A DNA stretch of 64,000 bases from Cytophagales bacterium (GTDB lineage: Bacteria; Bacteroidota; Bacteroidia; Cytophagales; Cyclobacteriaceae), in contig JAWXBL010000005.1 of the NCBI GenBank assembly GCA_034440075.1, positions 34,678-98,677 on the forward strand, in the 5' to 3' direction. Below are positions 21,752 through 41,619 of this stretch, one piece after another. The stretch's first letter is position 1; each line of letters begins with the position of its first letter. The notes beneath the pieces are model-generated. The model was given only the letters and a program-made list of their open reading frames with translations. It ran no database searches and was not told the DNA's origin. The translations under genes and the position numbers were made by a program.

Positions 21752-21787
21752 GGTCCAACGAAAGTCGCGTAGCCCTTGCTAGCGGTA
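21752..21787 (-). repeat. Degenerate short attC-like site downstream of the isochorismatase gene
   Basis: Minus strand reads TACCGCTAGC...GTTGGACC shortly after the stop codon. Confidence 0.35.
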
Positions 21788-21807
21788 CACTTTTCTGTCC
21801 TGCATTG

Positions 21808-22677
21808 TTATTTGTTGCGCTTTTGTTCCCTCACAGTTGGGGTAAGTTGAACCGCCTGAATAAAATCAATTGAGTTTGACACCCATCCAAATAGAGTTTG
21901 AATAGTTAAAAGTGAAGCTTGGTGATTACTTCGTGGAAAATTATTTCCAATCGGCTCAGCTGTACAATCTTCCAGAACTATTGGCAAGTAGTCCCTGAAC
22001 ATAGCGTCCCTTACGGTTGATTCTACACATATACTCGTTGTACATCCAGTAATTATAAGATACTTTTTGTTTAGTTGTTTTAGTGTTGAATCTAGATTTG
22101 TTTTATAAAAACCACTAAAGCGGGTTTTATAAATTACGATATCTCCTGGTTGCGGCTTAAGTTCAGGAATGATTTCAGTACCCCATGAGTCACGGATCAG
22201 GATGCGGCTTTCCGAGCCATCGGGAGCATTAATTGTATCTCCTACATGCATAAAATCTAGATGCCTTACACGGTTTACAGATTCTATACTTCCAATATCA
22301 GAAAGGTTATCACGAAAAGCCATCCTAAGATAAATTATTTCAATACCCGCTTGTCGGGCTGCTGCTATAACATTTGCAGTTGGGGTGACTACTTTTTGTA
22401 TCATTGAAATGTCGATGCCAGCTCTGTCAAACATACCACCCTTGGCACCAAAGTCATTCTCCATGTCTACAACAATAACGGCTGTACTTGAGGCATCAAT
22501 AGAAATTGAGTCAGGCTTAGCTTTTAAATGAATATTCTTTGAAGCATTGTTTTTAACCGCTGATAGTTTGCTGAAAGCAGTTGAATCAGTAATACTATTT
22601 TCTCTTTTTTCAGCATTGTATTTACAAGATGCAAAGAGCAACACCGTAATCAAAGTCTTATAAATGTACTTTTTCAT
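21808..22677 (-). CDS. Cysteine hydrolase (isochorismatase/RutB-like) with lipoprotein signal; cassette-like
   Basis: VVDMENDF, KTRFSGFY and TGCTTSICVESTVRDA; AT-rich. Confidence 0.88.
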   Translation of the reverse strand: MKKYIYKTLITVLLFASCKYNAEKRENSITDSTAFSKLSAVKNNASKNIHLKAKPDSISIDASSTAVIVVDMENDFGAKGGMFDRAGIDISMIQKVVTPTANVIAAARQAGIEIIYLRMAFRDNLSDIGSIESVNRVRHLDFMHVGDTINAPDGSESRILIRDSWGTEIIPELKPQPGDIVIYKTRFSGFYKTNLDSTLKQLNKKYLIITGCTTSICVESTVRDAMFRDYLPIVLEDCTAEPIGNNFPRSNHQASLLTIQTLFGWVSNSIDFIQAVQLTPTVREQKRNK

Positions 22678-22726
22678 TTTGCCTTTTTTAATAACTATTA
22701 AAAAGAGAGAAGTTGTCTATTGGGGT

Positions 22727-22895
22727 TACCGCCAACGTCGGTGTGTGGGTAGTGGGAGGGCTTGCTAAATCCGCGAGGCGGATGGCAAGACCGACTATTC
22801 CGCAAGTTCCACGAACTTGCTTGCATTACGAAGATAACTATTTACTTTAACTGTCTATCACCAGCATGGCAGATATACTTGTGTGCTGGGCGGTT
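22727..22895 (-). repeat. attC-like long repeat, copy 1 (degenerate right arm)
   Basis: Begins taccgccaac. Shares the core gggagggcttgctaaatc...ggcaagaccgacta..c.gcaagttccacgaac...gaagataactattta with 38345-38514 and 40019-40195. Confidence 0.75.
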
Positions 22896-22960
22896 TCTGT
22901 CGACTAACTCACTCTTGTCACATCAAGAACACCATTTACTTTCAGGTGTTTGTACGATAT

Positions 22961-24241
22961 TCATTCATGTGTCAGCTTACCCCCTGAAGAATGAGGATCA
23001 CCTCTCCACCACAGCGGCGCTCCTGTCCACGTCAGGAGTACAAGTGTAAGCGTGTAAATAAAAAACGGTGAGTCCAGTATGTACATTTGGAGACTGTTGT
23101 TGCCTTCCGTGAGGGTAATCATTACCACAAGCCCGATCATGGCTGACTTGTTGCCTTGCCTGACAGGACCGTGCAAGAGCACCCAGGCTCCGATTCCAAC
23201 AGCCATTAATGTTGTGCCGAGTGCCCTCAGGAGTGCAAAATCCAGTCTCATCAAATTGCGGGATACCTCCTCTGCTCCCAGTTGCAAATACTTGATGTGA
23301 GCATTGGGCAGGGACGTGCTGCTGAATGTAAAAATCAAAAGCATCAGGCCGTCACAGAATACTGCAATTGCGACAATTTGCAATATCGTGTATCCCATTT
23401 TCCGGACAGGCATTCTCGCCACAATGGCCACGATCGCGATAAGGAATGCTGGCAATATTAGTTTGTGAATGGGGTATTGTTCCTGGTTCGAAAGATTGAT
23501 CATCTTCACAAAATTCGAGATGTAGTAACCGGCAATCAGCGCAAAGCCCACCACAAAAAAAATAAACTTGTAGTTGAGGCGGGAAAGAAAATTAGGCAAC
23601 TGTTCTGGGCGGGGAGTTGGTTTTGGGACTATGACCGGATTCTCAAAATTCTTCAGGCCCATCAGGATCTCCTTCACTCCATTGGCAACTTTATTGATCT
23701 GATCGCGATAGAAAGTCTTGTTGAGATTCTTCTCCGGATTATCGGATGGGGTGAGAGGGCGGTTTACTCCTGCCGTCCTGTAAATAAACTCGATTGACCG
23801 CAAGGCTCCCTCCAACTCATTTTCGAGAAGAACCAGATCTCCTGCATCCAGGTCATGAATCTTTATGGGTAAAATTCTACTCACCACATTTCCGCTATCC
23901 ACCCGTATGTCTCTGCCAAACTTATCTTCTTTTGACATTTTATTAAACATCAGAAATTCGTTTTCCCAGGCAAAACTCTTGCTATCACAATACGTCTGAG
24001 AGATGATGGGAATAAGGATAAGGCACTTTAATTTTCCCTCGAGGCTTTTGGCAACATGATGCGTTTCGAGCAAGCCATCGTGAGGATTCGTGTCGAAGTA
24101 AACAGAGACAGGTTCTTTGATAGTGGCTGCCAATTCCTCTTGTAAGGCTTTTACAAACTCCGTTACCCAGCCACTTCTATTATCGTTGTGACGGTAGGAG
24201 ATGAAGATGTCGCACTCGTATCCTTGAATTATTGAAGGCAT
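22961..24241 (-). CDS. TIR-domain protein fused to a multi-pass membrane domain
   Basis: DIFISYRH, LIPIISQTYC and AWENEF (candidate catalytic Glu); about five hydrophobic segments in the C-terminal half. Confidence 0.8.
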   Translation of the reverse strand: MPSIIQGYECDIFISYRHNDNRSGWVTEFVKALQEELAATIKEPVSVYFDTNPHDGLLETHHVAKSLEGKLKCLILIPIISQTYCDSKSFAWENEFLMFNKMSKEDKFGRDIRVDSGNVVSRILPIKIHDLDAGDLVLLENELEGALRSIEFIYRTAGVNRPLTPSDNPEKNLNKTFYRDQINKVANGVKEILMGLKNFENPVIVPKPTPRPEQLPNFLSRLNYKFIFFVVGFALIAGYYISNFVKMINLSNQEQYPIHKLILPAFLIAIVAIVARMPVRKMGYTILQIVAIAVFCDGLMLLIFTFSSTSLPNAHIKYLQLGAEEVSRNLMRLDFALLRALGTTLMAVGIGAWVLLHGPVRQGNKSAMIGLVVMITLTEGNNSLQMYILDSPFFIYTLTLVLLTWTGAPLWWRGDPHSSGGKLTHE

Positions 24242-24274
24242 TATTCAAAGATAGGAAATCACTGTCAAGAAAAG

Positions 24275-24289
24275 CATCCCGAAGGGATG
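24275..24289. repeat. Short REP-like palindrome next to the RAYT fragment
   Basis: catccc-gaa-gggatg hairpin. Confidence 0.35.
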
Positions 24290-24886: not shown

Positions 24887-26068
24887 ATGACTGCTAATTA
24901 TTCTTTAGATAGTTTCATCGTAATCGGCACCAACTTTACGAAGGCCGATACCCAAATCAGAAGTTGCTTTGCCCTCGGTGCCCCAGCCATCAAAAAAGTA
25001 TATGCTAGTGCCAAATCCAAAGGGGTAGGAGATATTTTTGTATTGTCAACCTGCAATCGAACGGAATTCTATGCCTGTGCATCTGAGAGTACCTTACAGG
25101 AATTACTAATTCACCAGCTTAATTTGAACGAATCTGACTTTAATACCTACTTCTATACGCTTACAGGCGAAAATGCGCTTCGCCATTTTTTCCGTGTTAC
25201 CACGGGGTTAGACTCTCAGATTATCGGTGAATATGAAATTGTAGGTCAGGTAAAAAAAGCCATTCAACTGGCAAGAGAGAATAACGTGATTGGAACATTG
25301 ACCGACCGGATTTCCAGTGTCGCTTTCCAGGCTTCGAAGGAAGTAAAGTCAAAGACTAATCTCAGCAGTGGCAAATACTCGGTGAGCTACGCAGCTGCGG
25401 AATTAATTTCTGAAGAATCATTTGGCATCGATCCAAAACGAATTTTGATTGTTGGAACAGGTGAACTCGGCAAGGCGATTGCGCGAAACCTTAAAGAGTA
25501 TTTCCCTACCTGTGAATTAACTTTTACCAATCGCACGCGGACCCAGGCCGAAGAACTGGCCGCAGAAGTTGGCGCAGCAATCTTGCCGTTCGAAAGTTTC
25601 ACTGATCATCTTTCTTCCTTTGATGCCGTCATTGCCGCGGCTCAATCGGATCACTATGTTATTCAGCCGGTTCATACGGTTGCCATTCCTTCCGCTATAT
25701 TCTTAGACTTAAGCATTCCTCAGATTATTGATCCTAAGGTAAAGCATAAAACGGGAATCAAGCTTTTTTCGGTGGATGAGATTTCTGCTTTTCATAATGA
25801 ACTGATAAAGCAGCGCTACTTAGAAGTACCAAAAGCGCAAGCCATTCTGGAAGATCATATCCAAAAACTGATGGAGTGGCAGAGTATATTTGTCCATCGA
25901 AATATAATTCGTATTTATAAAGAAAGAGTGTCCGATTATGTTTCTACAGATGCGGTTCAAACCAAAAGTATTGACAAAGGTTTCTCTAGACTTATCCAGG
26001 AAATTAAATCCGAAGGATATCGAGGCTGCTCTGTCATTCAAACCATGAATGAAATAATTGCCGGTTAA
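24887..26068 (+). CDS. hemA: Glutamyl-tRNA reductase
   Basis: LSTCNRTE catalytic Cys, GLDSQIIGEYEIVGQVK and VGTGELG. Confidence 0.95.
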   Translation: MTANYSLDSFIVIGTNFTKADTQIRSCFALGAPAIKKVYASAKSKGVGDIFVLSTCNRTEFYACASESTLQELLIHQLNLNESDFNTYFYTLTGENALRHFFRVTTGLDSQIIGEYEIVGQVKKAIQLARENNVIGTLTDRISSVAFQASKEVKSKTNLSSGKYSVSYAAAELISEESFGIDPKRILIVGTGELGKAIARNLKEYFPTCELTFTNRTRTQAEELAAEVGAAILPFESFTDHLSSFDAVIAAAQSDHYVIQPVHTVAIPSAIFLDLSIPQIIDPKVKHKTGIKLFSVDEISAFHNELIKQRYLEVPKAQAILEDHIQKLMEWQSIFVHRNIIRIYKERVSDYVSTDAVQTKSIDKGFSRLIQEIKSEGYRGCSVIQTMNEIIAG

Positions 26069-26074
26069 GAAGTA

Positions 26075-26992
26075 ATGAGTCGCCAGCATCCCATTCGCAT
26101 CGGCACCCGCGAGAGTGCTTTAGCCTTGTATCAGGCACAGGAAGTACAGCAAGCGTTAGATGCCAAGGGGTTAGCTACAGAAATTGTTGAGATTACTTCC
26201 GATGGTGATCTAGACTTACATACTCCGTTATACGAAATGGGTATTCAAGGAATCTTCACGAAGTCACTCGATAGTGCGCTACTTCAAAATAGTATTGACA
26301 TCGCAGTTCATTCCGCAAAAGACATTCCTACCAAACTGGCAATAGGTTTGACGATCAGCGCCATGCTGAAGCGCGGTACGATTGAGGATTGTTTGGTGTT
26401 GCCTGCAGCAAAAGGAGATTTCAATCCGGCTATGGCTATTAAAATAGCTTCCAGTAGTTTACGAAGAAGATCGCAGTGGTTGCATCGATATCCGCATCAT
26501 ACGATGGAGAATTTGCGAGGCAACATTCAAACTCGACTAAAAAAATTAGATGGCTCCGATTGGGGTGGTGCCATTTTCGCGCAGACAGCATTAGAGCGAT
26601 TACAAATTTCTTTGCAGCATGTCATCACGCTCGATTGGATGCTACCGGCACCGGCACAAGGAGCGATGGCGATTGTATGCAGAGCCGATGATCAGCCGAT
26701 GTTGGAGGTTTGTGCCACCATTCATCATCTCGAAACTGGAATTTGCGTGAATGCCGAGCGGGATTTTTTAGCTGCTCTTCATGGAGGATGCGCTGTGCCC
26801 ATTGCAGCCAGCGCTAACATTCAAAAAGATCAACTTTTATTTAGGGGAAATATATTTAGCCTGGATGGCAAACAAAAGTGTGAGTTGGAAAGAAGCTTTT
26901 CATTAGAGCAAGCTTCACATGCGGGCACGATGGCAGCAAAAGAAATTCTGTGCAATGGAGGCCAATCGATTCTCAAAACATTTAGAAGCTAA
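26075..26992 (+). CDS. hemC: Hydroxymethylbilane synthase
   Basis: IGTRESALAL, DIAVHSAKD, SSSLRR, RGNIQTRL and GGCAVPI. Confidence 0.96.
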   Translation: MSRQHPIRIGTRESALALYQAQEVQQALDAKGLATEIVEITSDGDLDLHTPLYEMGIQGIFTKSLDSALLQNSIDIAVHSAKDIPTKLAIGLTISAMLKRGTIEDCLVLPAAKGDFNPAMAIKIASSSLRRRSQWLHRYPHHTMENLRGNIQTRLKKLDGSDWGGAIFAQTALERLQISLQHVITLDWMLPAPAQGAMAIVCRADDQPMLEVCATIHHLETGICVNAERDFLAALHGGCAVPIAASANIQKDQLLFRGNIFSLDGKQKCELERSFSLEQASHAGTMAAKEILCNGGQSILKTFRS

Positions 26993-27690
26993 TGGAAGGG
27001 CAAACTCATCTGGTATCTACAAAAATACTGGCACCTGAATTAGTAGAGCAAGTCAAAAAAGCAGGCCTTTCCATTTCATTGCACAATTTTATTCAATCCA
27101 TTATTCGAATTCCAGCCCAGCTGGCAATGAATCAACTTCACAAACATATTGTGCTCACCAGTAAATCAGCCGTAAAGTCATGGTTGGCAATAGCCCAACA
27201 ACATAGTGTCCCTCTAACCGATCATCTTATTTTTTGTACCGATCAGGGCACCCGGCAAGAAGCTTTGGCGAACGATTTGACGATTGTGGGCACGGCTCGT
27301 GACGCCTCCACGTTGGCAGATGTTATTGAATCGAACGGCCAGATAAAGGCAGTAACATTTGTTTGTAGTAATGTTCGCAGAGATGATTTACCATCAAAAC
27401 TTACCGCGAAGGGGATTTCTGTAATTGAATTAATAGGCTACGATACAGAACCAACTCCCACAAAGATAAACGAACCTTACCACGGTGTTTTGTTTTTTAG
27501 CCCGAGTGGTGTTGATAGTTTTCTTTCATCAAATCAAATAGCTCCGGTATGCTTTTGCATTGGCACTACCACAGCAGTACATGCTGCACAAAAAGGATTT
27601 AGTGAAATTCAAATTGCTGAATTAGCAACTACTGAATCTATGATTAAAAAAGTTGTTTGTTATTATACAAAAGATGCCGTTTATGATTAA
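26992..27690 (+). CDS. hemD: Uroporphyrinogen-III synthase
   Basis: LTSKSAV, FFSPSGV and CIGTTTA; position in the operon. Confidence 0.88.
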
Positions 27691-28708
27691 AAACGATTTG
27701 CTTTTCAAAGCACTGCGAAAAGAAAAAGTAACGCGTCCACCCGTGTGGATGATGCGTCAGGCAGGTCGATATTTGCCGCAATATATTGAGCTTCGTAAGA
27801 AGTATGATTTTTTCACCCGTGTGCAAACACCCGAGCTGGCTTGTGAAATCACGCTGCAGCCGGTAAACATTATTGGTGTGGATGCGGCCATTATTTTTTC
27901 AGATATTCTGGTTATTCCACAGGCAATGGGTATGGAAGTATTGATGGAAGAAGGAAAAGGCCCATTATTACCAAAAGTGATTGCGTCTAAACGTGATATT
28001 GAGCAACTTAATATAGAGGTAGAAAGCGAGCTGCAATATATGTTTGATTCACTGGCCTTGACAAAAAAAGAATTGAATGGTCGGGTTCCTTTGATTGGTT
28101 TTGCAGGAGCACCCTTCACATTGCTTTGTTACATGGTGGAAGGTAAGGGTGTCAAAGGGTTTGAAAAAGCAAAAGCATTTTGTTTTACACAACCAGCATT
28201 GGCCCATCGCCTACTGAGCAAGATTACAGAAGCAACTATTGTTTATCTGAAAGCTCAACTTAGAGCCGGAGCCGATGTTGTTCAGGTGTTTGATAGCTGG
28301 AGTGGTATGCTAAGCCCGGATGATTTCGATCGGTTTGCCGGAAAATATTTACTCCAAATTGCGGAGGCGGTGGCTCCGCATGGCCCAGTCATTTTATTTC
28401 CAAAAGGAAGTGCCTATGCATTAGAATCTATTTCTAAAAATCAGTCTGTGTCGGCTGTTGGAATTGATTGGAACATACGACCAGAGAAGGCGAGGCAAGA
28501 ATCTGGCGGGCGGATGACACTGCAGGGAAATTTTGATCCCATCCGTTTGCTCATTCCAATTCCGGAATTGAAAAAAGAAGTTCATACTATGATTAAAGCT
28601 TTTGGTACCCAGGCTTACATCGCGAACCTGGGTCATGGTATTGTGCCACACATTCCGGTTGATCATGCCAAAGCATTTGTGGATGCCGTTAAAGAATATC
28701 AGGAATGA
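27683..28708 (+). CDS. hemE: Uroporphyrinogen decarboxylase
   Basis: [19 protein letters not shown] and NLGHG. Start moved to MIKND. Confidence 0.96.
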
Positions 28709-29622
28709 ACACGGTTATCCGCGATCAATTTGTAAAGCACATCAAGTCGTTACAGTCTGATATTTGTACTGCACTCGAAAATGTTGATGGCAAAGCAAAA
28801 TTCATTATGGATGAATGGGAAAGACCCGGTGGTGGAGGAGGAACAAGCCGTATGATTAGCAATGGAGCTGTTTTTGAAAAGGGAGGTGTTAATATTTCTA
28901 TTGTTCAGGGTATGCTACCACCATTAGTAGCCCAACAATTGAAAGTTGACGGCAGTTTATTTTTTGCTGCTGGTTTATCGTTAGTCATCCATCCCATCAA
29001 TCCTAAAGTGCCTACGGTGCATGCCAACTGGCGCTACTTCGAAGTGTATGATGACCAAGGCAATGTAAAGGATTCGTGGTTCGGTGGAGGAACGGATCTT
29101 ACTCCATATTATCTTGTAGAAGATGATGCCATACATTTTCATGCTGTTCAAAAGAAAAGCTGCGATGCGTTTGATGAGAAGCTATATTCTCAGTTCAAAC
29201 GCCAATGCGACAATTACTTTGTCAATCATCATCGTGACGGTGAGCGCAGAGGTGTGGGCGGGATTTTCTTTGACCACTGCCGTGGAAATGAAGAGCATTC
29301 GAGTGAATTCTGGAAAAAGTTTACACAGGAGAATGGCAAAATGTTTTTGGAGGGCTATTTACCAATTGTGAAAAGGCGGATGAATGATTCTTTCAGCGAA
29401 GAGAATAAATACTGGCAGGAGATCCGCAGAGGTCGTTATGTTGAATTCAATTTGCTACACGATCGCGGCACTTTATTTGGTATTAAAACAAATGGACGCA
29501 CGGAAAGCATTTTAATGAGTCTTCCTCCGACCGTAAGATTTGAGTATAACTATCAACCTCAAGCTGGAAGTAAAGAGGAGAAATTATTGAGTGTCCTTAA
29601 AAATCCAGTCAACTGGATATAA
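28705..29622 (+). CDS. hemF: Oxygen-dependent coproporphyrinogen III oxidase
   Basis: [33 protein letters not shown] and [10 protein letters not shown]. Confidence 0.96.
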
Positions 29623-29656
29623 TCAAACAATTATTAAATGTCACCCCACAACTAAA

Positions 29657-30628
29657 ATGAAGAGACGTAACCGAATATTGCGACAGAATGTGGCCATTAG
29701 AAGTATGGTGCAAGAAACGGTGTTGAAACCATCGGATTTTATTGTGCCAGTTTTTATCACGGAAGGTGAAAAAGTGAAAGATGAAATTTCATCGCTGTCC
29801 GGATATTACCGCTTTTCGATTGACATGGCGGTGGAGGAGTTAAAGGAATGTTGGGCATTAGGAATCAAGAGTGCTTTGATTTTTGTGAAAGTGCCTGATG
29901 AATTGAAAGACAACGCCGGTAAAGAAGCGCTGAATGATGATGGATTGATGCAACGGAGTGTCCGTGCGATAAAGAAAGCATTGCCAGAAATGATAGTGAT
30001 GACCGATGTTGCGCTTGATCCATTCTCAAGCTACGGCCATGATGGAATTGTGGAAGGTCACGAGATTGTCAATGACCGAACAGTGGAGATATTGGCTAAG
30101 ATGAGCATTAGCCATGCCAAGGCTGGTGCCGATTTTGTTGCACCGAGTGACATGATGGATGGCCGCATTGGTGCGATCCGTCAGGCATTGGAGCACGCTG
30201 GATTTCATAACACGGGAATCATGAGCTATGCGGCAAAGTATGCTTCGTCTTTTTATGGTCCCTTTCGCGATGCGTTGGGTAGCGCTCCAGGTTTTGGAGA
30301 TAAGAGTACATATCAAATGAATCCTGCGAACAGACTTGAAGCGATCAAAGAAGTGCTTATGGATGTGGAAGAAGGAGCTGACATTATAATGGTAAAACCA
30401 GCGCATGCCTATTTGGATATTATTCGTGAAGTAAAAAACGAAGTGCAGCTTCCCGTCAGTGCTTATCACGTGAGTGGTGAATACGCTATGATCAAAGCTG
30501 CAGCTAAGGCCGGTTATTTAAATGAAGATCGGGCAATTATCGAAGTGCTTACAGGAATCAAAAGAGCCGGTGCCGATTTGATTGCGACATATTTTGCCAA
30601 GCAAGCAACTAAATTAATTACGAAGTAA
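29657..30628 (+). CDS. hemB: Porphobilinogen synthase
   Basis: DVALDPFSSYGHDG, APSDMMDGR and MVKPA. Start moved to MKRRNR. Confidence 0.96.
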   Translation: MKRRNRILRQNVAIRSMVQETVLKPSDFIVPVFITEGEKVKDEISSLSGYYRFSIDMAVEELKECWALGIKSALIFVKVPDELKDNAGKEALNDDGLMQRSVRAIKKALPEMIVMTDVALDPFSSYGHDGIVEGHEIVNDRTVEILAKMSISHAKAGADFVAPSDMMDGRIGAIRQALEHAGFHNTGIMSYAAKYASSFYGPFRDALGSAPGFGDKSTYQMNPANRLEAIKEVLMDVEEGADIIMVKPAHAYLDIIREVKNEVQLPVSAYHVSGEYAMIKAAAKAGYLNEDRAIIEVLTGIKRAGADLIATYFAKQATKLITK

Positions 30629-31909
30629 ATGAGCTATTCCATTACCAAAAGCAAATCTCTTTTCGATCGCGCCCAACAACACATCCCCGGTGGCGTTAAT
30701 TCTCCTGTGCGTGCGTTTAAAAGTGTGGGTGGCACACCGTTGTTCATACAGAAAGCAAAAGGCGCTTATCTCTATGATGAAGATGGAAACCAATACATTG
30801 ACTACATCAACTCCTGGGGTCCGATGATTTTAGGTCATGCCTATCAACCTGTGGTAGATGCTATCATTGCAAAAGCGGCTGACTCTACTTCGTTCGGGGC
30901 ACCAACAGAATTGGAAATTGACATGGCGGAGCTCATCAAGCAGATGGCACCCGCTATTGATTTGGTTCGCATGGTGAACAGCGGAACCGAAGCATGCATG
31001 AGTGCCGTGCGATTGGCACGAGGGTATACCGGAAGAAATAAGATTATCAAGTTTGAGGGTTGTTACCACGGACATGCCGATGCTTTTTTAGTTAAAGCAG
31101 GAAGTGGGGTAGCAACATTAAATATTCAGTCTGTTCCTGGTGTGCAAGCACACGTAGCCGAAGATACCCTGACGGCACCCTATAATGACATGGATTCGGT
31201 CATGAATCTGATTTCGCAGCATCCCAACGAAATTGCCGCTATTATCATTGAGCCAGTGGCCGGAAACATGGGTTGTATCTTACCAGCGGAAGGATACTTA
31301 AAATCACTTCGTGAAGTATGTACACAACAGGGTATCATTTTGATTTTTGACGAAGTTATGACCGGTTTCCGCTTAGCGCGCGGTGGAGCGCAGGAAGTAT
31401 TTGGTATCGAGGCAGACCTTGTCACCTTCGGAAAAATAATTGGAGGTGGTTTACCCGTAGGTGCTTTTGGTGGAAAGAAGGCCATCATGGAAAAAATTGC
31501 ACCCCTTGGTGCTGTTTATCAGGCAGGAACGTTGAGCGGCAATCCCATTGCCATGACCGCTGGCTATACATTGCTAAAGCAATTGAATGATAATCCTTCC
31601 ATCTATGCTAAACTGGACGCTAAAGCAAAATTGCTTTGTGAAGGTATTCATCAGGCGTTGGAAAAGAAGGGAATAGATCATCGCATCAATCAACTCGGCA
31701 GCATGATGAGTGTGCATTTTTGTTCACACGAGGTGAAACATTTTGAGGATGCGAAAGCGTGTGATAATAGTCTCTTCAACAAATTCTTTCATCACATGTT
31801 AACTAAAGGCATATACCTTCCACCATCAGCTTTTGAAAGCTGGTTTATATGTACAGCATTGTCAGATTCCGATATTCAAAAAACGGTGGACGCGGTATTG
31901 GAATTTTGA
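30629..31909 (+). CDS. hemL: Glutamate-1-semialdehyde 2,1-aminomutase
   Basis: [26 protein letters not shown] and GKIIGGG. Confidence 0.97.
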
Positions 31910-32977: not shown

Positions 32978-32988
32978 ATTACCTAGCT

Positions 32989-33519
32989 ATGTATTTATAT
33001 GTAAAAGCACTGCACATCATTTTTGTTGTCACCTGGTTTGCAGGACTTTTCTACATGGTGCGTCTCTTTATTTATAATCGCGAAGCCCAAGATAAACCAG
33101 AGAAGGAAAGAATAATCCTTCAGCAACAATTTTCGGTTATGATAATGCGATTGTGGTTTGGTATCACCTGGCCATCGTGCATCCTAACAATTATTTTCGG
33201 AATTTGGATGCTGATTCTTTATGGTAGCATACCTACGTGGTTGTGGATCAAAATTGGCTTTGTTGCCGGTTTGGTGGCCTACCACTTTTCCCTACACATT
33301 ATCTATCTGCAACATTCCAATCAAGTCTTTCGATATTCCTCCACTCAACTGCGCATTTGGAATGAGGTGGCCACCGTCTTTTTGTTTGCCATTGTCATGC
33401 TGGTGGTAGTGAAAGATGCCCTTAGTCTGGTGTGGTCTATTGGCGGGTTAGTGTCGTTTGCCGTGGTGCTATTGATCGTCGTCCAGTGGTATAAAAAAAT
33501 CACAAAGGGGTATAAATAA
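32989..33519 (+). CDS. hemJ: Protoporphyrinogen oxidase HemJ
   Basis: KALHIIFVVTWFAGLFYMVRLF and RIWNEVAT. Confidence 0.92.
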   Translation: MYLYVKALHIIFVVTWFAGLFYMVRLFIYNREAQDKPEKERIILQQQFSVMIMRLWFGITWPSCILTIIFGIWMLILYGSIPTWLWIKIGFVAGLVAYHFSLHIIYLQHSNQVFRYSSTQLRIWNEVATVFLFAIVMLVVVKDALSLVWSIGGLVSFAVVLLIVVQWYKKITKGYK

Positions 33520-33549: not shown

Positions 33550-33554
33550 GGCTT

Positions 33555-36151: not shown

Positions 36152-36860
36152 CTAAGTTCAAGTAATAAGTGCAACGCAAAAGGTTAAAGGAAAGGAGGTT
36201 TCCCCCCTTTCAATTGACCAAGGTTTTGAAAACTTTGTGTTGCTTATGACGACAAACTATTCTCACCTTAGCCAAGAGCAAAGGTATCAAATTGAAGCCT
36301 TATTAAGGACAGGTAAGACCCAAGTTCAAATAGCTTCTTTAGTAGGCTGCCACAAGTCAACGGTGAGTCGAGAGTTGAGACGAAATGTTCCTCAACGGGG
36401 AATAGGAGCAAAGGAATACAAAGCTGTTAAGGCTCAATTAAAGACCTAGCTACGCCATCACCTCAAGGCCAAACATGAAAGGTTCACCCAGGATATGCGG
36501 AAGCAAATTGTTGAGTGGCTTACCGTGGAGAAGCTCAGTCCTGAGTTGATCTCTGTATTGGGGCGAGCACAAGACAATGATTTTGTCAGTCATGAAACCA
36601 TTTACACCTGGATATGGAGTATGAAGCATTCCCATCGAAAAGAAAATCGACCTTTTCAAGACCTGTATCAAGAACTCAGGCATGGAAGAAGACGCAGAAA
36701 ACGAGGCAATCGTCGCGATAATAGGGGTTGTATCCCCAACCGAATCTCTATTGAGAACCGACCGGCACTCGTTGAAAAGCGAGACCGTTTGGGGGACGTT
36801 GAAGTAAATTTAATGCTGGGTAAAAACCACCAGCCAGGATTACTGGTCATTATCGAGCCT
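36152..36860 (+). mobile_element. Decayed IS30-family element (left IR plus truncated transposase)
   Basis: HTH YSHLSQEQRYQIEAL...HKSTVSRELRRN, in-frame TAG at 36447-36449, VSHETIYTWI and ISIENRP. The first DDE Asp position reads N (GDVEVNL) and similarity ends near 36860. Candidate IR ctaagttcaagtaataagtgcaac at 36152-36175. Confidence 0.88.
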
Positions 36861-36871
36861 GTGCTATTAAA

Positions 36872-37708
36872 CTATTTCTTTGGGCTCCATTTCCCCATTA
36901 AGAATTCGGTCGAATGTTTTAAAAAGTCTGAATAGTTATTAGGGTCTAAATGTGGAACATGTCCGCCATTTGGAAAAATCCAGAGTCTGCTATTCGGTAT
37001 ATATTTTTTCATTTCTATTGCTTGGTCTAATGGAATAAAGTCATTGTCCCCCTGAACGATAAGCCACTGTGCTTTAATTGAATTCAACATGTCAGGCGAA
37101 AATGAAGGATCACCGTAGAAATTTCTAAAACGCCAAAACTGTCTTGCCTGTAACATCGCTTTCTCTTGGCCATGAATTTTAGATTGCTTGGATATGATAT
37201 CAGTCTTGGCACTGTCAGGTCCGTCTGAAGTAATCCAATCTCTCACCCGTTGGTCATAATAGATTTGCGCTCCAATTGTTATTACATTTTTAAATTTGTC
37301 AGGTTGCATGAAATTGGCGTAGAAAAGCGTAATTCCTCCGGAACTTGCCCCCATTGCATTCACTTGATTAATTTTTAAATAGTCCAGTAACGCAAGAATT
37401 ATTTTCGCATAGTCACTGTGTCTAAATTCCACGTCTCCCTTTTTATAGATGTCTGAACGTCCGTGGCCAATCATGTCAACGGAGATTACTCTAAATATTT
37501 TTGAGTAATCCTCAAAGTATGCTTTCCATTGGTCAGCTGTCCCATTGAATGTATGTAAAAGTAAGAGAGGCTCTCCTTGTCCAATGTCCTCATAATATAT
37601 TTTTGTTCCATTGTAATTAAAAAACTTTCCGGTTGAGGAAATTGGCAATTGTCCATTTGACCCAAAATAAATTAGGTAGAGTAGGACGAAGGTTATTATT
37701 TTTTTCAT
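36872..37708 (-). CDS. Secreted alpha/beta hydrolase; cassette-like
   Basis: LLLLHTF, DMIGHGRS, GASSGG, QGDND and GGHVPH; AT-rich. Confidence 0.85.
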   Translation of the reverse strand: MKKIITFVLLYLIYFGSNGQLPISSTGKFFNYNGTKIYYEDIGQGEPLLLLHTFNGTADQWKAYFEDYSKIFRVISVDMIGHGRSDIYKKGDVEFRHSDYAKIILALLDYLKINQVNAMGASSGGITLFYANFMQPDKFKNVITIGAQIYYDQRVRDWITSDGPDSAKTDIISKQSKIHGQEKAMLQARQFWRFRNFYGDPSFSPDMLNSIKAQWLIVQGDNDFIPLDQAIEMKKYIPNSRLWIFPNGGHVPHLDPNNYSDFLKHSTEFLMGKWSPKK

Positions 37709-37736
37709 ATCATTTAGGTTGGTTGTCGGTGGCATT

Positions 37737-37745
37737 GGCGCTAAC
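37737..37745 (-). repeat. Isolated R'-like core site (GTTAGCGCC) at the cassette start
   Basis: ggcgctaac on the + strand, 29 nt upstream of the ATG. Confidence 0.55.
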
Positions 37746-37886
37746 AAGCATTTCGACCTGACTCGTGATCCTTGATTGCCTTGACAATCTGGGTCTCTAT
37801 GAATTTTGTCTTTCTCATTGTTTATCCATTTAAAGTTGATAAATTTATTCCAACTATTAAATGGCCGAACTTCAGGGGAGCTTACA
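37746..37886 (-). mobile_element. IS3-family remnant (terminal IR plus OrfA N-terminus)
   Basis: Minus strand TGTAAGCTCCCCTGAAGTTCGGCC, then ATG at 37818 encoding MRKTKFIETQIVKAIKDHESGRN, cut at the GTT core site. Confidence 0.7.
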
Positions 37887-37903: not shown

Positions 37904-38290
37904 TTAACCCCTTGCTGAGCCGTCCGACTGCATGGCACAAACAAGATTACCTTCCGTATCCAAAAACTTTGTGATCCAGCCAACATATGGGATTGCAGTC
38001 TTCGGCATAAGTATTTGGCCGCCGTTGTTTTGGACTTTCTTAATTATGTCGTCAACGCTTTCAACTGTCACGGTGCATTCTAATCCTATTAACCTTTCTT
38101 TCACTGGAGAGTATGTCCTTGCTTGTAAAGCGCCGATTAGCTCTCCGTTTTCGGTTTGGTCAGCCTTTATTTGTAAAAAGTCAGTTGGTCCGTAGGATGT
38201 AAAGCCCCAATCAAATACTTGTCCGTAAAACTTCTTTGCCCTTTCAATATTGTCAATGTGAATTGCAAAGTGGGTCATTTTATTTTTCAT
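37904..38290 (-). CDS. VOC/glyoxalase family protein; cassette-like
   Basis: HFAIHIDNIERAKKFYGQVFDW, GGQILMPKTAIPYVG and DTEGN. Confidence 0.9.
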   Translation of the reverse strand: MKNKMTHFAIHIDNIERAKKFYGQVFDWGFTSYGPTDFLQIKADQTENGELIGALQARTYSPVKERLIGLECTVTVESVDDIIKKVQNNGGQILMPKTAIPYVGWITKFLDTEGNLVCAMQSDGSARG

Positions 38291-38344: not shown

Positions 38345-38514
38345 CCCCAACGTCGGTATAAATGTCCGTGGTGGGGGGAGAGGGAGGGCTTTCTAAATCT
38401 GCCAGCTGGCAAGACCGACTACTCTGCAAGTTCCACGAACAATTTCCGCAACCGAAGATAACTATTTATTTTGAGTGCGATCCCCACCATGATCCATAAT
38501 ACGTTGTTGTGTGC
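38345..38514 (-). repeat. attC-like long repeat, copy 2 (170 bp)
   Basis: ccccaac...gttgtgtgc, internal ggtgggg/ccccacc stem and the shared core. Confidence 0.82.
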
Positions 38515-38606: not shown

Positions 38607-39227
38607 TTAAGAATAACTTTCACTTGCATCAGCACGATCCATAAAGGTTAGGTCAATGCTAACCACGGCTGATACGAGTAACCAGAGAGTCGCTAAATCA
38701 GTATTCATGTCAACTGTTGTTGTCAGGAGATAGATCGAGCGCAAGGAGCCACTTCTAGTGACAATCTCTTTCTGTTTCTTTCTAGTCTCCTCTGAATCTC
38801 TAAGTACCTTTGCAAACACCTTATCAGCTTCATTCTTGAATTTGTAGTTAAATGTTCCCGACTCAATGATTATTTTTAAGATTAGTTTGTCATTGTCAGT
38901 CTTGAGATTGTATTTGTCTCCATCCACTCCAAGTAAATTTCTATGTAGAATACCTATGACATTGGCGTTTGCGTCCATAATATTTGTTCTAGATGCAAAC
39001 CAGGTAAATCCCTTACGGATTGTAAACAACTTAGTCCCAGCTTTTGAGATAAAGTCAAAAGAAAAGGAAGTTCCAGAAATATCTAAAAATCTGAATATCT
39101 TTTGACTAATCGTTGAGTTTTTTTCAACAGCGGTCATTATCACATCGTTTGAATCTCCATCCAGAATCTCAAACTCTCTATGAAATTTAAGCAAGTTTAA
39201 TTTTCTCGTAATTACATATGACCCCAT
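38607..39227 (-). CDS. LURP-one/scramblase-like protein; cassette-like
   Basis: LKFHREFEILD, LFTIRKGFTWFASR and LLVSAVVSID resemble the tubby C-like LURP1 fold. Confidence 0.6.
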   Translation of the reverse strand: MGSYVITRKLNLLKFHREFEILDGDSNDVIMTAVEKNSTISQKIFRFLDISGTSFSFDFISKAGTKLFTIRKGFTWFASRTNIMDANANVIGILHRNLLGVDGDKYNLKTDNDKLILKIIIESGTFNYKFKNEADKVFAKVLRDSEETRKKQKEIVTRSGSLRSIYLLTTTVDMNTDLATLWLLVSAVVSIDLTFMDRADASESYS

Positions 39228-39322
39228 ATTGTGTATCCGTTACAAATGAGTGATTTTCGAAAACTGTACAGTGCACATTGATGCTGTTCACTAGTTGATC
39301 AGGTCAATTAAAATCTCACTGG

Positions 39323-39331
39323 GCACTCAAC
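39323..39331 (-). repeat. Isolated R'-like core site (GTTGAGTGC)
   Basis: gcactcaac on +, 7 nt from the P460 stop. 8/9 match to the cassette's own end site GCACACAAC (38506-38514, minus strand). Confidence 0.5.
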
Positions 39332-39338
39332 CGGGTCT

Positions 39339-39845
39339 TCAGTGCAGATCAAACGTGCGCACCAGGTCGCGGTTGGGGGAGGTGCTGTGGCAGCTCACGC
39401 ATCCCGAGCCCTTCGACTTGACCGAAACCACCACCCCGCCGGATGGATTGTATTCTGCCCAAAGCCAGCCGCTCCCCGCATTGGAATTTGCCGGGTCTTT
39501 TTTCATGACCGCATACAGCGTAATCCCCGATCCGCCTTGTATGTCTTTTACCAGGACGGACCCCGTGGGGAACGAATTTCCGGGTGGAAGTTCACCCGTG
39601 CCGTCAAGCACAGCCGCTGCCGTGGCATTGAAACGAAGTTTGAAATTACCATGAGGACCCATGCCCGTCAGCGTGTTGCCGCCCTGGTAAAACGTGTAGC
39701 CCGACGCCGTCGTTTCTGCAAACAGCGCGGCATCCGGATCCGGCGCGGACGACATGCTGGTCTCCCTGGAACATGAGTAGATCAGAATGACCAGCGCGCC
39801 GATGGCGCTCAGCCTGCCTATTTCTCTTGCCGCATCGATCTTCAT
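39339..39845 (-). CDS. Cytochrome P460 family lipoprotein
   Basis: Lipobox (IYSC), FPTGSVLVKD, AVMKK, GWLWAEY and the C-terminal heme motif CVSCH. Confidence 0.8.
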   Translation of the reverse strand: MKIDAAREIGRLSAIGALVILIYSCSRETSMSSAPDPDAALFAETTASGYTFYQGGNTLTGMGPHGNFKLRFNATAAAVLDGTGELPPGNSFPTGSVLVKDIQGGSGITLYAVMKKDPANSNAGSGWLWAEYNPSGGVVVSVKSKGSGCVSCHSTSPNRDLVRTFDLH

Positions 39846-40018: not shown

Positions 40019-40195
40019 GCGCACAACGTCAGTGTATTTGTCCGAAGTGGGAAGTAGGAGGGCTTGCTAAATCCGCCAGTTGGCGGATGGCAAGGCCGAC
40101 TACTCTGCAAGTTCCACGAACTTGGTTGCATTACGAAGATAACTATTTACTTCAACTGTGAATCCCCAGCATGGCATATACACTTTGTTGTGTGC
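40019..40195 (-). repeat. attC-like long repeat, copy 3 (177 bp)
   Basis: gcgcacaac-gtca-gtgtat ... atacac-ttt-gttgtgtgc; the HepT stop codon is 7 nt away. Confidence 0.88.
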
Positions 40196-40202: not shown

Positions 40203-40535
40203 TTAGCTGAGTAGAGATTTAATCTCTTTTTCGAGGTCAGGTAAATTTTTGATTATTATCCCCCAAAGAATATCCGCTGACACTGAGTCATAGCCGTGTA
40301 TGATCCTGTTTCTTGTGTCAACTATTTTTCTTGTGTGGCTAATCTTTATTTTAGGATCAATTGCCAAAATGCGACTCATTGCCTCTCCAATGATTTCTAC
40401 ATTGCGTTCAACAGCTCTACGAGTTTTCAGATCCTTTTGAAATTCTTTGAAGTCCTTGATTTCAGGAATGAATGATTTTATTTCAGCAATGGCTTGATCA
40501 ATGTCCTTAAGCCAGGTCTTGATATTATTGTCCAT
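40203..40535 (-). CDS. HepT-like HEPN RNase toxin (DUF86)
   Basis: AVERNVEIIGEA and RNRIIHGYD (RxxxxH plus Tyr). Confidence 0.92.
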   Translation of the reverse strand: MDNNIKTWLKDIDQAIAEIKSFIPEIKDFKEFQKDLKTRRAVERNVEIIGEAMSRILAIDPKIKISHTRKIVDTRNRIIHGYDSVSADILWGIIIKNLPDLEKEIKSLLS

Positions 40536-40827
40536 AGATTAGGACTTTTGACTTGTCTATACTCTGCCTGAGGAAGGGATTTTTGATTGCCCTATTCTCC
40601 AGGAGGTCAATAGATCGGTCCAATATCTTTTCAAGTGCAAATTTGAGCTGGAAATAATTATCAGAGTACTCAAAAGGGTCGCTTGTTTGAAAATCAACCA
40701 TCAGGTCCACGTCACTAGTCTTTGTAAATTGTGTCGTATTAACCGAGCCAAAAGAGTAGAGACTCTTTACCTTGTGATTCTCGCAAAGCCTTAGAATTTG
40801 CTCTTTATAAGTTTCAATTATTCCCAT
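40525..40827 (-). CDS. MntA-like minimal nucleotidyltransferase antitoxin
   Basis: FGSVNTTQFTKTSDVDL (GSx10DxD); overlaps the toxin start. Confidence 0.92.
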   Translation of the reverse strand: MGIIETYKEQILRLCENHKVKSLYSFGSVNTTQFTKTSDVDLMVDFQTSDPFEYSDNYFQLKFALEKILDRSIDLLENRAIKNPFLRQSIDKSKVLIYGQ

Positions 40828-40871
40828 GATGCAAATTTAGCTAATTTTTACTCTAATCTTTGCCGGGCATT

Positions 40872-40959
40872 GCACACAACGTTTGTGTATAAGGCGTTTG
40901 CCTTACCAAAATAGAAATAAACAAAGGAAGGCAAATGACTTATACACTTTGTTGTGCGC
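40872..40959 (-). repeat. attC-like site (88 bp hairpin)
   Basis: gcacacaac / gttgtgcgc ends, with perfect inner pairs gtgtataag/cttatacac and tttgcctt/aaggcaaa. Confidence 0.88.
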
Positions 40960-40973
40960 TGGTTGATTAGTCC

Positions 40974-41462
40974 TCACTTTTTAGTCAGTTGTTTTAAAAT
41001 TCTTTTTGTCAAGTCGTCAGTCAATGGAGAAATCGCATCTTCTTCCTTGTCAACTGATATGTTTAAAGTCGTGTCAATTCTTTTGTCCGTCTTTGGCTCA
41101 ATTTGCTGAAATGTCACTCGATTACAAAGCGGTATTTTTGCACCAAGGGTTTCTAGTTTGACGTATGCGGGCGTTAATAATGACAATTTTATCTTTAAGG
41201 TTTTCTTATCGCTACTGGTTGACGTAATGTCCGTTACAACACACTCAAGGCCATTTGAATTGAGTTGACCAGATAATTGAGAGGCAATTTTGTCAAGAAA
41301 CTCTTTTCCTTCTTTTGATTTAACTGTGTCAATAGTCAAAATGATTTTGTCAGCCTGGATACTGAAATGTTTCCACGGTTTATAATAATAGTATTTCTGT
41401 CCGAAAGAATTGATGGAGAGTCCAAATAGTAAAACTGTAATTAATATTCTTGTCACTCTCAT
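40974..41462 (-). CDS. Secreted hypothetical protein; cassette-like
   Basis: Signal peptide MRVTRILITVLLFGLSINSFGQ; AT-rich; bounded by att-like sites. Confidence 0.7.
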   Translation of the reverse strand: MRVTRILITVLLFGLSINSFGQKYYYYKPWKHFSIQADKIILTIDTVKSKEGKEFLDKIASQLSGQLNSNGLECVVTDITSTSSDKKTLKIKLSLLTPAYVKLETLGAKIPLCNRVTFQQIEPKTDKRIDTTLNISVDKEEDAISPLTDDLTKRILKQLTKK

Positions 41463-41491
41463 TGTCTTGTGTTGTCTCGTCTTATCAACTT

Positions 41492-41500
41492 GCGCACAAC
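41492..41500 (-). repeat. R'-like core site (GTTGTGCGC) marking the first cassette start
   Basis: gcgcacaac on +. A weak partner cttgtgcgg at 41571-41579 gives the same 88-bp span as the previous site. Confidence 0.65.
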
Positions 41501-41619
41501 AACCGTGCATACGCTAAATTGCGTCTACACATCTGCAGCAGACGAATATACGGAATTGCATATATAGGCTCTTGTGCGGATGTTGCCTCCACGGCACCAT
41601 TCCGCGCCGCGCAAAGGAC

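Follow-up and report, generated by a model that had tools for sequence, protein, structure and literature searches.

Small minus-strand genes in a 64-kb window (the whole stretch of Cyclobacteriaceae DNA analyzed here) are bounded by imperfect inverted repeats. The question raised by this locus is whether these repeats are recombination sites of a gene-capture system and, if so, which enzyme serves them. A sequence-only reading had proposed an integron-like cassette system that has non-canonical cores, has been split into pieces, and depends on a recombinase encoded elsewhere in the genome. In the explanation that we favor, to which we assign a probability of about 0.85 as a whole, the repeats are attC-like recombination hairpins of an integron-like cassette system of Cyclobacteriaceae and other Bacteroidota. 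The platform of this system lies on another contig of the same genome (C12), and the window holds a detached piece of it.

Repeat family and the cluster in the window

All four repeats picked out from the sequence alone (e1 to e4, Table 1) are present as described. The e1, e2, and e3 repeats belong to one family with 75–90% identity and a length of 170–177 nt, which is also copied on contigs C11, C39, C45, and C12 of the same genome; e4 is an 88-nt hairpin. The element termini have the form CACAAC-4 nt-GTGTAT ... ATACAC-3 nt-GTTGTGYGC. The offset of the two arms by one base, which had also been pointed out, is real and conserved: the 5' spacer (3–5 nt) is longer than the 3' spacer (2–4 nt) in 26 of 28 elements from eight genomes, the excess base being in the AAC-side arm. 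Most sites have a length of 157–199 nt, with a full range of 76–199 nt.

Table 1. Features of the cassette cluster and of the solitary site e1 (window coordinates; z, folding compared with shuffled sequences)
Feature	Position	Strand	Remarks
Orphan attI-like site	41489..41576	+	left type only, no hairpin partner; adjoins S10 peptidase stop
attI-like core	41492-41510	+	GCGCACAAC AACC GTGCAT
Cassette 1 gene, 162 aa, N-terminal signal-like segment	40974..41462	-	GC 0.35; between attI-like site and e4
e4, short attC-like hairpin (76-88 nt)	40872..40959	+	closes cassette 1; z = -7.0
Cassette 2, toxin-antitoxin: MntA (40525-40827), HepT (40203-40535)	40203..40827	-	Pfam Polbeta/NTP_transf_2, HepT-like
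e3, 177-nt attC-like site	40019..40195	+	closes cassette 2; z = -6.5; HepT stop 7 nt away
Cassette 3 gene, cytochrome P460-like secreted protein	39339..39845	-	Pfam PF16694
206-aa gene	38607..39227	-	no family match (Pfam, NCBIfam)
e2, 170-nt attC-like site	38345..38514	+	most diverged copy, 75-77% identity to e1/e3
VOC/glyoxalase cassette gene	37904..38290	-	Pfam PF00903
IS3-family element-end remnant	37747..37886		occupies place of the site expected after VOC
Plausible left-type box	37724..37741	+	GGCATTGGCGCTAAC; ~20 nt upstream of hydrolase start
Alpha/beta hydrolase gene	36872..37710	-	Pfam Abhydrolase_1
IS30 transposase fragment	36495-36935	+	NCBIfam IS30, 79.6 bits, profile positions 45-155 of 267; overlaps hydrolase 3' end
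e1, solitary degenerate site	22727..22895	+	between ORF426 (22961-24241) and isochorismatase (21808-22677)

The fold is supported by covariation across 24 related elements. In their alignment, 93% of the paired cells can pair, compared with 74% after shuffling, and compensatory changes occur in 21 of 25 pairs, a result matched by none of 500 shuffles; in control alignments slid out of register, pairing is just 35–51%. The first 12 base pairs of the stem are free of bulges. All 24 elements share one invariant G.T pair, and G.T pairs outnumber A.C pairs (38 vs 7). The + strand is the one with the more stable fold at six of six sites. Thus, the repeats have the imperfect hairpin, the R and L boxes, and the conserved AAC ... 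GTT of attC sites. In known attC sites, moreover, the bottom strand has two or three extrahelical bases near L'', and each arm has an unpaired central spacer of 5–6 nt (PMC5027507); these are missing here, and the invariant G.T pair is found instead. The element center (TAGGAGGGCTTG...CGAAGATAACTATTT) is strongly conserved between genera, beyond the needs of a hairpin alone.

The cluster spans 37.9–41.6 kb of the window and comprises five or six cassettes, with the attI-like site followed by e4, e3, and e2. The GC content varies between the cassettes from 0.35 to 0.59, and the cassette 3 gene has 0.586 against 0.35–0.42 in its neighbors. The cargo of the system is typical of cassettes (toxin–antitoxin pairs, VOC, SRPBCC, DUF1801, and DUF4440). 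Most of the earlier gene calls were borne out by family searches (isochorismatase, alpha/beta hydrolase, VOC, and HepT/MntA), while the LURP-like call finds no support in Pfam or NCBIfam, and the "secreted hypothetical" protein can be named more precisely as P460-like. The cassette 1 protein has no Pfam or NCBIfam match. The proposed distance of 7–14 nt between the stop codons and the inner core holds only for HepT and e3 (7 nt) and for ORF178 and e4 (14 nt); it is 92 nt at e2 and 65 nt at e1. The e2 site retains the stem and the invariant G.T pair (alignment A4).

The three proposed half-sites fared differently. That at 41492 is real; however, it is an orphan attI-like site and not half of an attC. 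No significant fold or box was found at 39323, nor at the lower edge of the region near 21752; no site can be recognized between the 206-aa gene and cassette 3, and the sequence at 39228–39338 folds no better than chance. The half-site at 37737 falls in a stretch that could plausibly be a left-type box: it resembles the left boxes of e3, e4, and C39a, and its reverse complement coincides over 10 nt with the right box of the site at C39:2325-2445. The alpha/beta hydrolase gene next to it is possibly a former cassette.

As had been supposed, the array is broken into pieces, which are separated and cut at the distal end of the cluster by the IS3 and IS30 remnants. Over its 140 nt, the IS3 remnant is 97.9% identical to the terminal part of an IS with HTH_Tnp_1 + rve in L087, and it is also copied at the starts of contigs C16 and C39 of the same genome. 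The e1 site lies about 15 kb from the cluster and is 88% identical to e3. Its right end reads ATATAC-TTGTGTGC, about 7 nt being missing, including part of the L box and GTT, and no partner box was found for it among the genome-wide matches listed; e1 is probably a dead site. The cluster, e1, and an accessory heme operon are contained in a 28-kb variable insert. The heme operon is not itself a cassette; it is part of this insert.

Complementarity between adjacent sites

The left box of a site, which precedes ...AAC, is complementary to the GTT... box of its neighbor and not to its own. The reverse complement of the left box matches the adjacent right box at 9.6 of 12 nt on average, with at least nine matches in 23 of 26 pairs, whereas the mean is 5.5 of 12 for boxes of the same site and 4.8 ± 1.6 for 737 other pairs. 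The pairs come from the window (e3–e4 and e4–attI-like), from contigs C39, C11, and C12 of the same genome, and from the metagenome-assembled genomes (MAGs) G022, G241, and G242; an array of 121-nt sites in Chryseolinea also obeys this rule. It fails for e2–e3 in the window and for one adjacent pair each in G022 and G241.

Within the window, the e3 right box GTTGTGTGCAGTGCC equals the reverse complement of the e4 left box at 14 of 15 positions, and the reverse complement of the attI-like core equals the e4 right box at 10 of the 12 nt after GTT. With its left box exchanged for that of the attI-like site, e4 folds at -32.6 kcal/mol, compared with -22.0 kcal/mol in situ. The sites are therefore chimeric, as in integrons, with the core at the start of a cassette complementing the inverse core of the cassette's own site. 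Complementarity between adjacent sites is the footprint of insertion of cassettes one by one; cassettes have entered singly, each unit with a single site, and the junction is the AAC/GTT triplet. The view of a cassette system with non-canonical cores is thus upheld by the integron neighbor rule.

The same property contradicts the reading of the repeats as MITE/REP-like selfish elements, or as structured RNA or terminator modules, unrelated to the movement of cassettes. Terminal inverted repeats in multiple copies are indeed what such elements would have, and the conservation of the center across genera exceeds what a hairpin alone requires. However, the ends complement the neighboring copy, and complementarity within a site remains near background. 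Moreover, no target-site duplications were seen by eye, every copy has the orientation of its flanking genes and directly follows a stop codon, and no Rfam family reaches the gathering score. We consider this reading scarcely credible.

The recombinase and its platform

The window contains no integrase, as had been stated; a tblastn search of the 64 kb revealed no recombinase remnant. The expectation of a recombinase elsewhere in the genome was correct, although the enzyme is not IntI. The start region of contig C12 carries a gene for a Xer-like recombinase of 382 aa that lacks the IntI patch. About 50 nt beyond its stop codon is an attI-like half-site (C12:655-690), followed by the first cassette, the attC of which is cut by the contig end. 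Local alignment of the attI-like site of the window with this region scores 44, compared with 19.1 ± 3.9 (max 38) for 300 shuffles.

The array recombinases have about 380 aa, of which about 105 form an additional domain at the N terminus, and the C12 protein is 61.5% identical to its G241 counterpart. The patch region comprises 25 aa, against 68 in IntI (VchIntIA, 2a3v). The catalytic core fits best the archaeal XerA model NF040815 (218 bits, cut-off 220) and the 5hxy structure. The highest TIGR02249 scores in the genome are 204.6 and 194.2 bits (cut-off 265), each in two pieces; a canonical IntI above the cut-off was found neither in this genome, which is 100% complete, nor in five other element-bearing genomes. 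A second recombinase paralogue, on C15, has its own attI-like box.

The same platform is present in three Cyclobacteriaceae MAGs (G022, G241, and G242) and in a Chryseolinea MAG, with arrays of up to about 11 sites. The arrays examined in these four genomes are downstream of the recombinase gene and co-oriented with it. In G241 and G022, they contain 9 to 11 sites and end 240–300 nt from the gene; the layout is the same in G242 and Chryseolinea. In C12, G022, G241, and G242, the stop codon of the recombinase gene is followed at 50–90 nt by a one-armed attI-like site. Thus, a cassette entry site adjoins the recombinase gene, in a 3' and co-oriented position, unlike in classical integrons. At least 7,863 protein clusters match this recombinase (E <= 1e-30).

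Metagenome contigs 99.94–99.99% identical to C12 diverge right after ...AAGGTTGTT, and at least four different first cassettes are joined exactly at the GTT of the C12 attI-like site in near-identical strains. Such divergence on a near-identical backbone shows that the platform has been active recently in the natural population. The proposed comparison of cassette order between strains gave a different result for the window: in the same samples, the cluster is invariant, with an identical gene order in six of the six places recovered. The piece in the window looks static and is apparently frozen. The window indicates that an attI-like site can occur without a recombinase and that IS elements fragment and scatter arrays.

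Because of its adjacency to the arrays in five genomes and the polymorphic junction beside its gene, the Xer-like recombinase appears to run the cassette system. A cassette comprises a single minus-strand gene or two such genes, with a hairpin site behind. In the hairpin, an R box surrounds the conserved AAC/GTT triplet; the spacer is small and asymmetric, the stem covaries over about 17 bp, and the center is branched. In the mechanism that we propose, the patch-less recombinase would catalyze recombination, presumably on the folded non-coding (+) strand. The window has an orphan attI-like head with the cassettes of e4, e3, and e2, its distal end cut by IS remnants.

Two explanations assign the movement of cassettes to another enzyme. 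The repeats could be ordinary integron debris, i.e., true attC sites moved by a canonical IntI that was lost or acts from other cells or plasmids, the Xer-like gene being incidental. The cores, boxes, neighbor rule, and cargo all fit an integron, and a true IntI scores above the TIGR02249 cut-off in 4 of the 201 genomes of the family. However, both full-length IntI loci examined there (G160 and G078) lack such repeats, no IntI above the cut-off accompanies the elements in the six genomes mentioned, the arrays of five genomes lie directly beside the patch-less recombinase, which is accompanied by a matching attI-like box, and the polymorphism of the first cassette sits exactly beside its gene. 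This makes integron debris improbable. We regard as still more improbable that another enzyme, such as housekeeping XerC/XerD (C11:70441-71244 and C17:85325-86125), moves the cassettes as in dif modules or IMEX and that the array recombinase has some other role. A dif site has 28 bp, with two 11-bp arms and a 6-bp spacer, while the present sites are 76–199-nt hairpins in arrays and not dif-like duplexes, and we do not assign them to Xer/dif modules. The array recombinase is itself nearest to the Xer/XerA models, and XerC/D can act on folded single-stranded DNA (PMC5027507); against this, the gene–site–array geometry is kept across genera, and the C15 paralogue has a box of its own. We therefore retain the array-linked recombinase as the probable enzyme of the system.

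Comparison with known systems

The system is most readily compared with sedentary chromosomal integrons, such as the Vibrio cholerae superintegron with its VCR sites. The two share arrays in which the cassettes have a common orientation, mostly contain a single gene, and are each terminated by an imperfect hairpin with conserved AAC/GTT; toxin–antitoxin pairs and small enzymes make up the cargo. In both, the sites are highly similar within a genome, have long branched centers, and are chimeric between neighbors, and the insertion site is beside a tyrosine recombinase of the Xer/IntI branch. Unlike in sedentary integrons, the IntI-specific insertion is absent from the recombinase, which carries an additional domain at its N terminus, and the attI-like site is downstream and co-oriented rather than upstream and divergent. 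In addition, the spacers have fewer nucleotides, the opposite arm bears the extra base, and in place of the extrahelical bases there is an invariant G.T pair. Cassettes and recombinase gene share one orientation, as here, in the "inverted" integrons of the Treponema denticola type; however, the integrases of that type carry the IntI patch and are detected by IntI models. Most of the sites described here (157–199 nt) exceed the known attC range of 57–141 bp (PMC5027507).

The window cluster resembles a CALIN, a cluster of attC sites lacking an integron-integrase (Cury 2016, PMC4889954; Neron 2022, PMC9024848), defined by two or more attC called by the IntegronFinder covariance model with no integrase nearby. 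Its three sites lie within 2.6 kb of a 64-kb stretch without a recombinase, and it shows signs of decay; unlike a CALIN, it keeps an attI-like site at its head. According to IntegronFinder 2.0, integrons are nearly absent from Bacteroidetes, which have only In0 elements and one complete integron, in Salinibacter (PMC9024848). We found no published description of the present system. We lean, with some reserve, towards a widespread class of Bacteroidota integrons missed by standard searches. Its patch-less Xer-like recombinase with a new N-terminal domain would capture cassettes just 3' of its own gene, the strand of the long hairpins being marked by the invariant G.T wobble and the one-base spacer asymmetry in place of extrahelical bases, and detached attI-like sites with cassettes may seed secondary loci.

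In its catalytic core, the array recombinase is like XerA, XerC, and XerD; its gene, however, is associated with an array instead of chromosome dimer resolution. What defines an integron is IntI with its extra domain, and this domain is considered indispensable for the binding of folded attC. Here, a patch-less relative is linked to arrays that bear all the sequence marks of cassette capture of the integron type, among them a recent exchange of first cassettes between genomes whose flanking C12 backbone is 99.9–99.99% identical. Confirmation of the enzyme would broaden the definition of the integron and give integron finders a new target; it would also provide a natural test of hairpin recognition without extrahelical-base contacts and open a large unexplored pool of cassettes in environmental Bacteroidota.

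Repeat elements and gene cassettes of the window

The inverted repeats that the sequence-only reading had placed beside small minus-strand genes were recovered by a repeat finder and by direct reading. Three of them (e1–e3) are copies of an element of 170–177 nt, and e4 is an 88-nt hairpin that has only its ends in common with e1–e3. The offset geometry described for the ends was also seen, with the ends reading ..GCRCACAAC-4 nt-GTGTAT ... ATACAC-3 nt-GTTGTGYGC. The gene calls largely hold for the isochorismatase, hydrolase, VOC, and HepT/MntA genes, whereas the protein called a secreted hypothetical is cytochrome P460-like. The GC content varies from 0.35 to 0.59 from cassette to cassette.

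Features of the cassette cluster, in the order of the minus-strand reading, followed by the outlying copy e1 and the isochorismatase gene
Feature	Window position
S10 peptidase gene	41620-43104
Orphan attI-like site	41489-41576
ORF178 (cassette 1 gene)	
e4, 88-nt hairpin	40872-40959
MntA-HepT genes	40203-40827
e3, repeat-family copy	40019-40195
Cytochrome P460-like protein gene	39339-39845
206-aa ORF	
e2, repeat-family copy	38345-38514
VOC gene	37904-38290
IS3-family remnant	37747-37886
Plausible left-type box	37724-37741
Alpha/beta hydrolase gene	36872-37747
IS30 transposase fragment	36495-36935
e1, repeat-family copy	22727-22895	
Isochorismatase gene	21808-22677	

A genome-wide BLAST search with the elements (3.46 Mb, 52 contigs) revealed extra copies at C11:389-517, C11:1108-1252, C39:3373-3541, and C39:6652-6755, as well as a fragment on contig C45. 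The Rfam scan of the whole window gave no family at the gathering score, and e3 had no matches in a plasmid collection. Genome-wide scans for generic AAC...GTT hairpins performed no better than the reversed-sequence control (6 vs. 6, then 68 vs. 114), and fuzzy searches with the end motif and boxes were too noisy. Scoring with a right-end position matrix retrieved the known sites; the remaining candidates of the matrix lie within coding DNA.

The proposed attC half-site at 41492 turned out to be of the attI type, a one-armed left-type insertion site. It aligns with the attI-like region beside a recombinase gene on contig C12, and both contain CACAACAACC and further collinear blocks; the local alignment score is 44, compared with 19.1 ± 3.9 (maximum 38) for 300 shuffles. 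No recombinase remnant or pseudogene was found within the window. The half-site proposed at 39323 was not upheld, as the region 39228-39338 folds no better than chance; no site could be demonstrated that separates the P460-like gene from the 206-aa ORF, and the fold of 21713-21807 is not above chance. The e1 copy, located 15 kb off, has lost approximately 7 nt, including GTT, and no partner box for it was found among the genome-wide matches listed. The IS3-family remnant and the IS30 fragment mark the distal end of the cluster. The former is 98% identical to an IS end of which copies are also present at the starts of contigs C16 and C39 of the same genome, with another cassette array alongside.

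Complementarity of neighbouring sites and hairpin structure

All elements were oriented as the window + strand, and the 12 nt before AAC and the 12 nt after GTT were taken as boxes. In the cassette arrays, the left box of a site complements the right box of the adjacent lower-coordinate site and not the flank of its own GTT. Adjacent sites match on average at 9.6 of 12 positions (n = 26 pairs, 23 of them with at least 9 matches), the two boxes of one site at 5.5 (n = 20), and the remaining combinations at 4.8 ± 1.6 (n = 737, 0.4% with at least 10). Within the window, the e4 left box has GTTGTGTGCAATGCC as its reverse complement, to be compared with GTTGTGTGCAGTGCC in the right box of e3; the half-site 41492-41510, likewise reverse-complemented, gives GTTGTGCGCAAGTTG, to be compared with GTTGTGCGCTGGTTG in the right box of e4. 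Such complementarity (the neighbour rule) is a classical hallmark of integron cassettes. It excludes an origin of the repeats as MITE- or REP-type elements, since the boxes pair with the neighbouring site and not with their own. Each cassette was inserted as a unit that brought a single site, and this site was split at the conserved triplet upon insertion. When the sites are rebuilt as in the free cassette, they fold better: the energy changes from −22.0 to −32.6 kcal/mol for ORF178 and from −45.1 to −48.5 kcal/mol for MntA/HepT.

Folding of the single-stranded DNA was far more stable than that of shuffles, with z = −6.5 for e3 and z = −7.0 for e4. The consensus structure, determined by RNAalifold from an alignment (A4) of 24 elements from eight genomes, consists of a terminal stem of approximately 17 bp and an inner hairpin. 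The share of paired cells is 93%, compared with 74% in column shuffles and 35–51% with slid partners. Compensatory double changes occur in 21 of the 25 pairs, and none of the 500 shuffles reached any of the five measures. The pairing is kept across the L-box variants GTGTAT/ATACAC, GCTATT/AATAGC, AGTTTA/TAAACT, GTGCAT/ATGCAC, and GTACAT/ATGTAC.

The hairpins are asymmetric. The spacer on the AAC side is 1–2 nt longer than that on the GTT side in 26 of 28 elements, and the + strand has 38 G.T pairs vs. 7 A.C pairs, one G.T pair being invariant in all 24 aligned elements. Owing to these asymmetries, the + strand, on which the cassette genes are not encoded, is folded more stably than the − strand at all six sites tested. 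This makes the bottom strand the probable substrate, as in integrons.

The element centre, TAGGAGGGCTTG...AAGNCCGAC...CGAAGATAACTATTT (alignment A4, columns 31-47, 102-110, and 150-170), is conserved across MAGs labelled Cyclobacteriaceae and Chitinophagaceae. This conservation exceeds the need of the hairpin alone; the centre could be a protein-binding module. The same centre is present even in a MAG labelled Thermoanaerobaculia (L051), which could be a binning artefact.

Recombinase-headed arrays and cassette turnover

The sequence-only reading had assumed a recombinase elsewhere in the genome. Such a protein is indeed encoded beside the attI-like site of C12, but the integron-integrase-specific insertion (IntI patch) is absent from it. 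The integron integrase profile TIGR02249 found nothing above its cut-off in the genome; the top-scoring matches, C12:737-1885 (382 aa) and C15:836-1876 (346 aa), stay below it and each consist of two pieces that flank the region of the IntI insertion. Residues 13-179 and 247-319 of VchIntIA (2a3v) align with the C12 protein, which has only 25 residues of its own between them. Its top family score belongs to the archaeal XerA model. The Pfam domains Phage_int_SAM_4 and Phage_integrase leave approximately 105 N-terminal residues outside, for which Pfam gave no match even at E ≤ 10. In the AlphaFold model (pLDDT 81.7), this N-terminal domain has a beta-beta-alpha-beta-beta-alpha-beta fold, and the full-length model resembles XerA and VchIntIA to a similar degree. 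Modelled alone (a weak model, pLDDT 60), the domain had no significant match in the PDB (best E 0.56). The recombinase family is very large, with at least 7,863 clusters matching at E ≤ 1e-30; among the best matches listed, most are annotated as XerD or 'site-specific tyrosine recombinase/integron integrase' and are located on short contigs.

The 346-aa protein of C15, 43% identical to the C12 recombinase, likewise has no patch and is also encoded at a contig start (G000:C15:730-1876, L039), with a left-type box, GCTTGCCTATAAC TTCC GTATTT, approximately 80 nt beyond its stop codon. This locus may be a second platform.

Other genomes with arrays were reached via a pattern search on the conserved element centre. 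The exact pattern had no matches in the genome contig collection, and a looser one gave mostly chance matches plus six real loci. G241, a Cyclobacteriaceae MAG, contains nine or ten co-oriented elements with one or two small minus-strand ORFs between them (contig JBGAPO010000019.1), and 292 nt separate the array end from a 381-aa recombinase, 61.5% identical to the C12 protein. Eleven elements were found in a MAG from the same genus, G022, where the array ends 240 nt from its own recombinase; a short contig of G242 has the same arrangement. In the Chryseolinea MAG GCA_037720155.1, nine sites of 121 nt, which conform to the neighbour rule, follow a 64%-identical recombinase. Canonical IntI was found in none of G241, G242, G022, and two more element-bearing MAGs. 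G241, G022, and G242 each have a one-armed site of the left type 50–90 nt beyond the recombinase stop codon, with a box complementary to the right box of the final attC. Elements f and i of G241 (L070:10283-10470 and 16139-16342), together with approximately 30 nt beyond them, are near-duplicates, which hints at a duplication of the attI-proximal segment inside this array.

The layout of C12 is the same. Its region 655-690 reads GGCGGCATTACCCACAAC AACC TTATAT, and the attI-like site is followed by a gene encoding a 221-aa secreted protein. Positions C12:1-80 hold the right-hand portion of an element with a box, GTTGTGGGTAGTGCCGCC, that matches at 17 of 18 positions. The contig thus begins inside a repeat, and the platform is present in this genome and broken by assembly. 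A further array is located at C39:2325-6760 (L036); it has four sites of 121, 179, 126, and ~110 nt, obeys the neighbour rule at all three junctions, and includes one five-gene cassette (HxlR, two SRPBCC, TfoX_N, and VOC).

The exact C12 recombinase protein is encoded by ten metagenome contigs, which are 99.94–99.99% identical to C12 DNA over 8–11 kb, as far as the attI-like core. Directly after ...ATATAAGGTTGTT they diverge into at least four unrelated continuations: GTT is followed by GTGGGTAATGCC in the genome itself, ACCAACAATTTGC in L087, GTAGGCCATGCG in L088 and L091, and GTAGGCAAGGCG in L090. Beyond the junction, L087 carries a different 10-kb array, in which a Vsr/methylase/EcoRII system is accompanied by six same-family elements whose boxes also follow the neighbour rule. 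Divergence immediately 3' of GTT places the crossover at or adjoining this triplet and shows cassette turnover among near-identical strains, a sign that the platform was recently active.

The first cassettes of C12 thus differ between strains, whereas gene order at the window locus is constant in the same metagenomes. The window locus is 99.98–100% identical in six places; several of its metagenome contigs end at e3, as expected for a repeat, which leaves some room for hidden variation. Since C12 varies while this order is identical, the window cluster is a detached satellite and apparently frozen.

Genomic setting and comparison with integrons

In G256 and G022, the two relatives with a readable junction, the S10 peptidase gene directly adjoins orthologues of window genes at 10546-13216. 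Window 13200-41620 (~28 kb) therefore forms a variable insert. Besides the cassettes and a heme operon, its cargo includes a CHAT-TPR protein (15325-18138) and MgtE (18388-19749). In a third relative, G258, other DNA occupies this spot. The heme operon (24887-33519) is complete, with hemA, C, D, E, F, B, L, and H and a UPF0093/HemJ-like gene; a TonB-dependent receptor is encoded in this region on the opposite strand. The GC content of the operon is 0.43 vs. 0.52 in the flanks. Homologues of its HemA (55–57% identical) were found in only 3 of the 40 other genomes of the genus, and the operon thus looks horizontally acquired.

Canonical IntI scores above the TIGR02249 cut-off in 4 of 201 genomes of the family. 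Around two full-length canonical IntI loci, L021 and L022 (G160:C1:365627-366592 and G078:C13:43538-44470), no attC-like repeat family was found. For Bacteroidetes, IntegronFinder 2.0 reports nothing beyond In0 elements and one complete integron, that of Salinibacter (PMC9024848), and a full-text literature search found no description of arrays with a patch-less recombinase in Bacteroidota. Known attC sites are 57–141 bp long, with spacers of 5–6 nt and with extrahelical bases close to L'' (PMC5027507). In the system considered here, site geometry and length differ from those of integrons, the attI-like site is placed and oriented differently, and the patch-less recombinase, which scores below all IntI models, falls outside the integron integrases. 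Nevertheless, in its mode of action, as deduced from sequence comparison, it is like a sedentary chromosomal integron.
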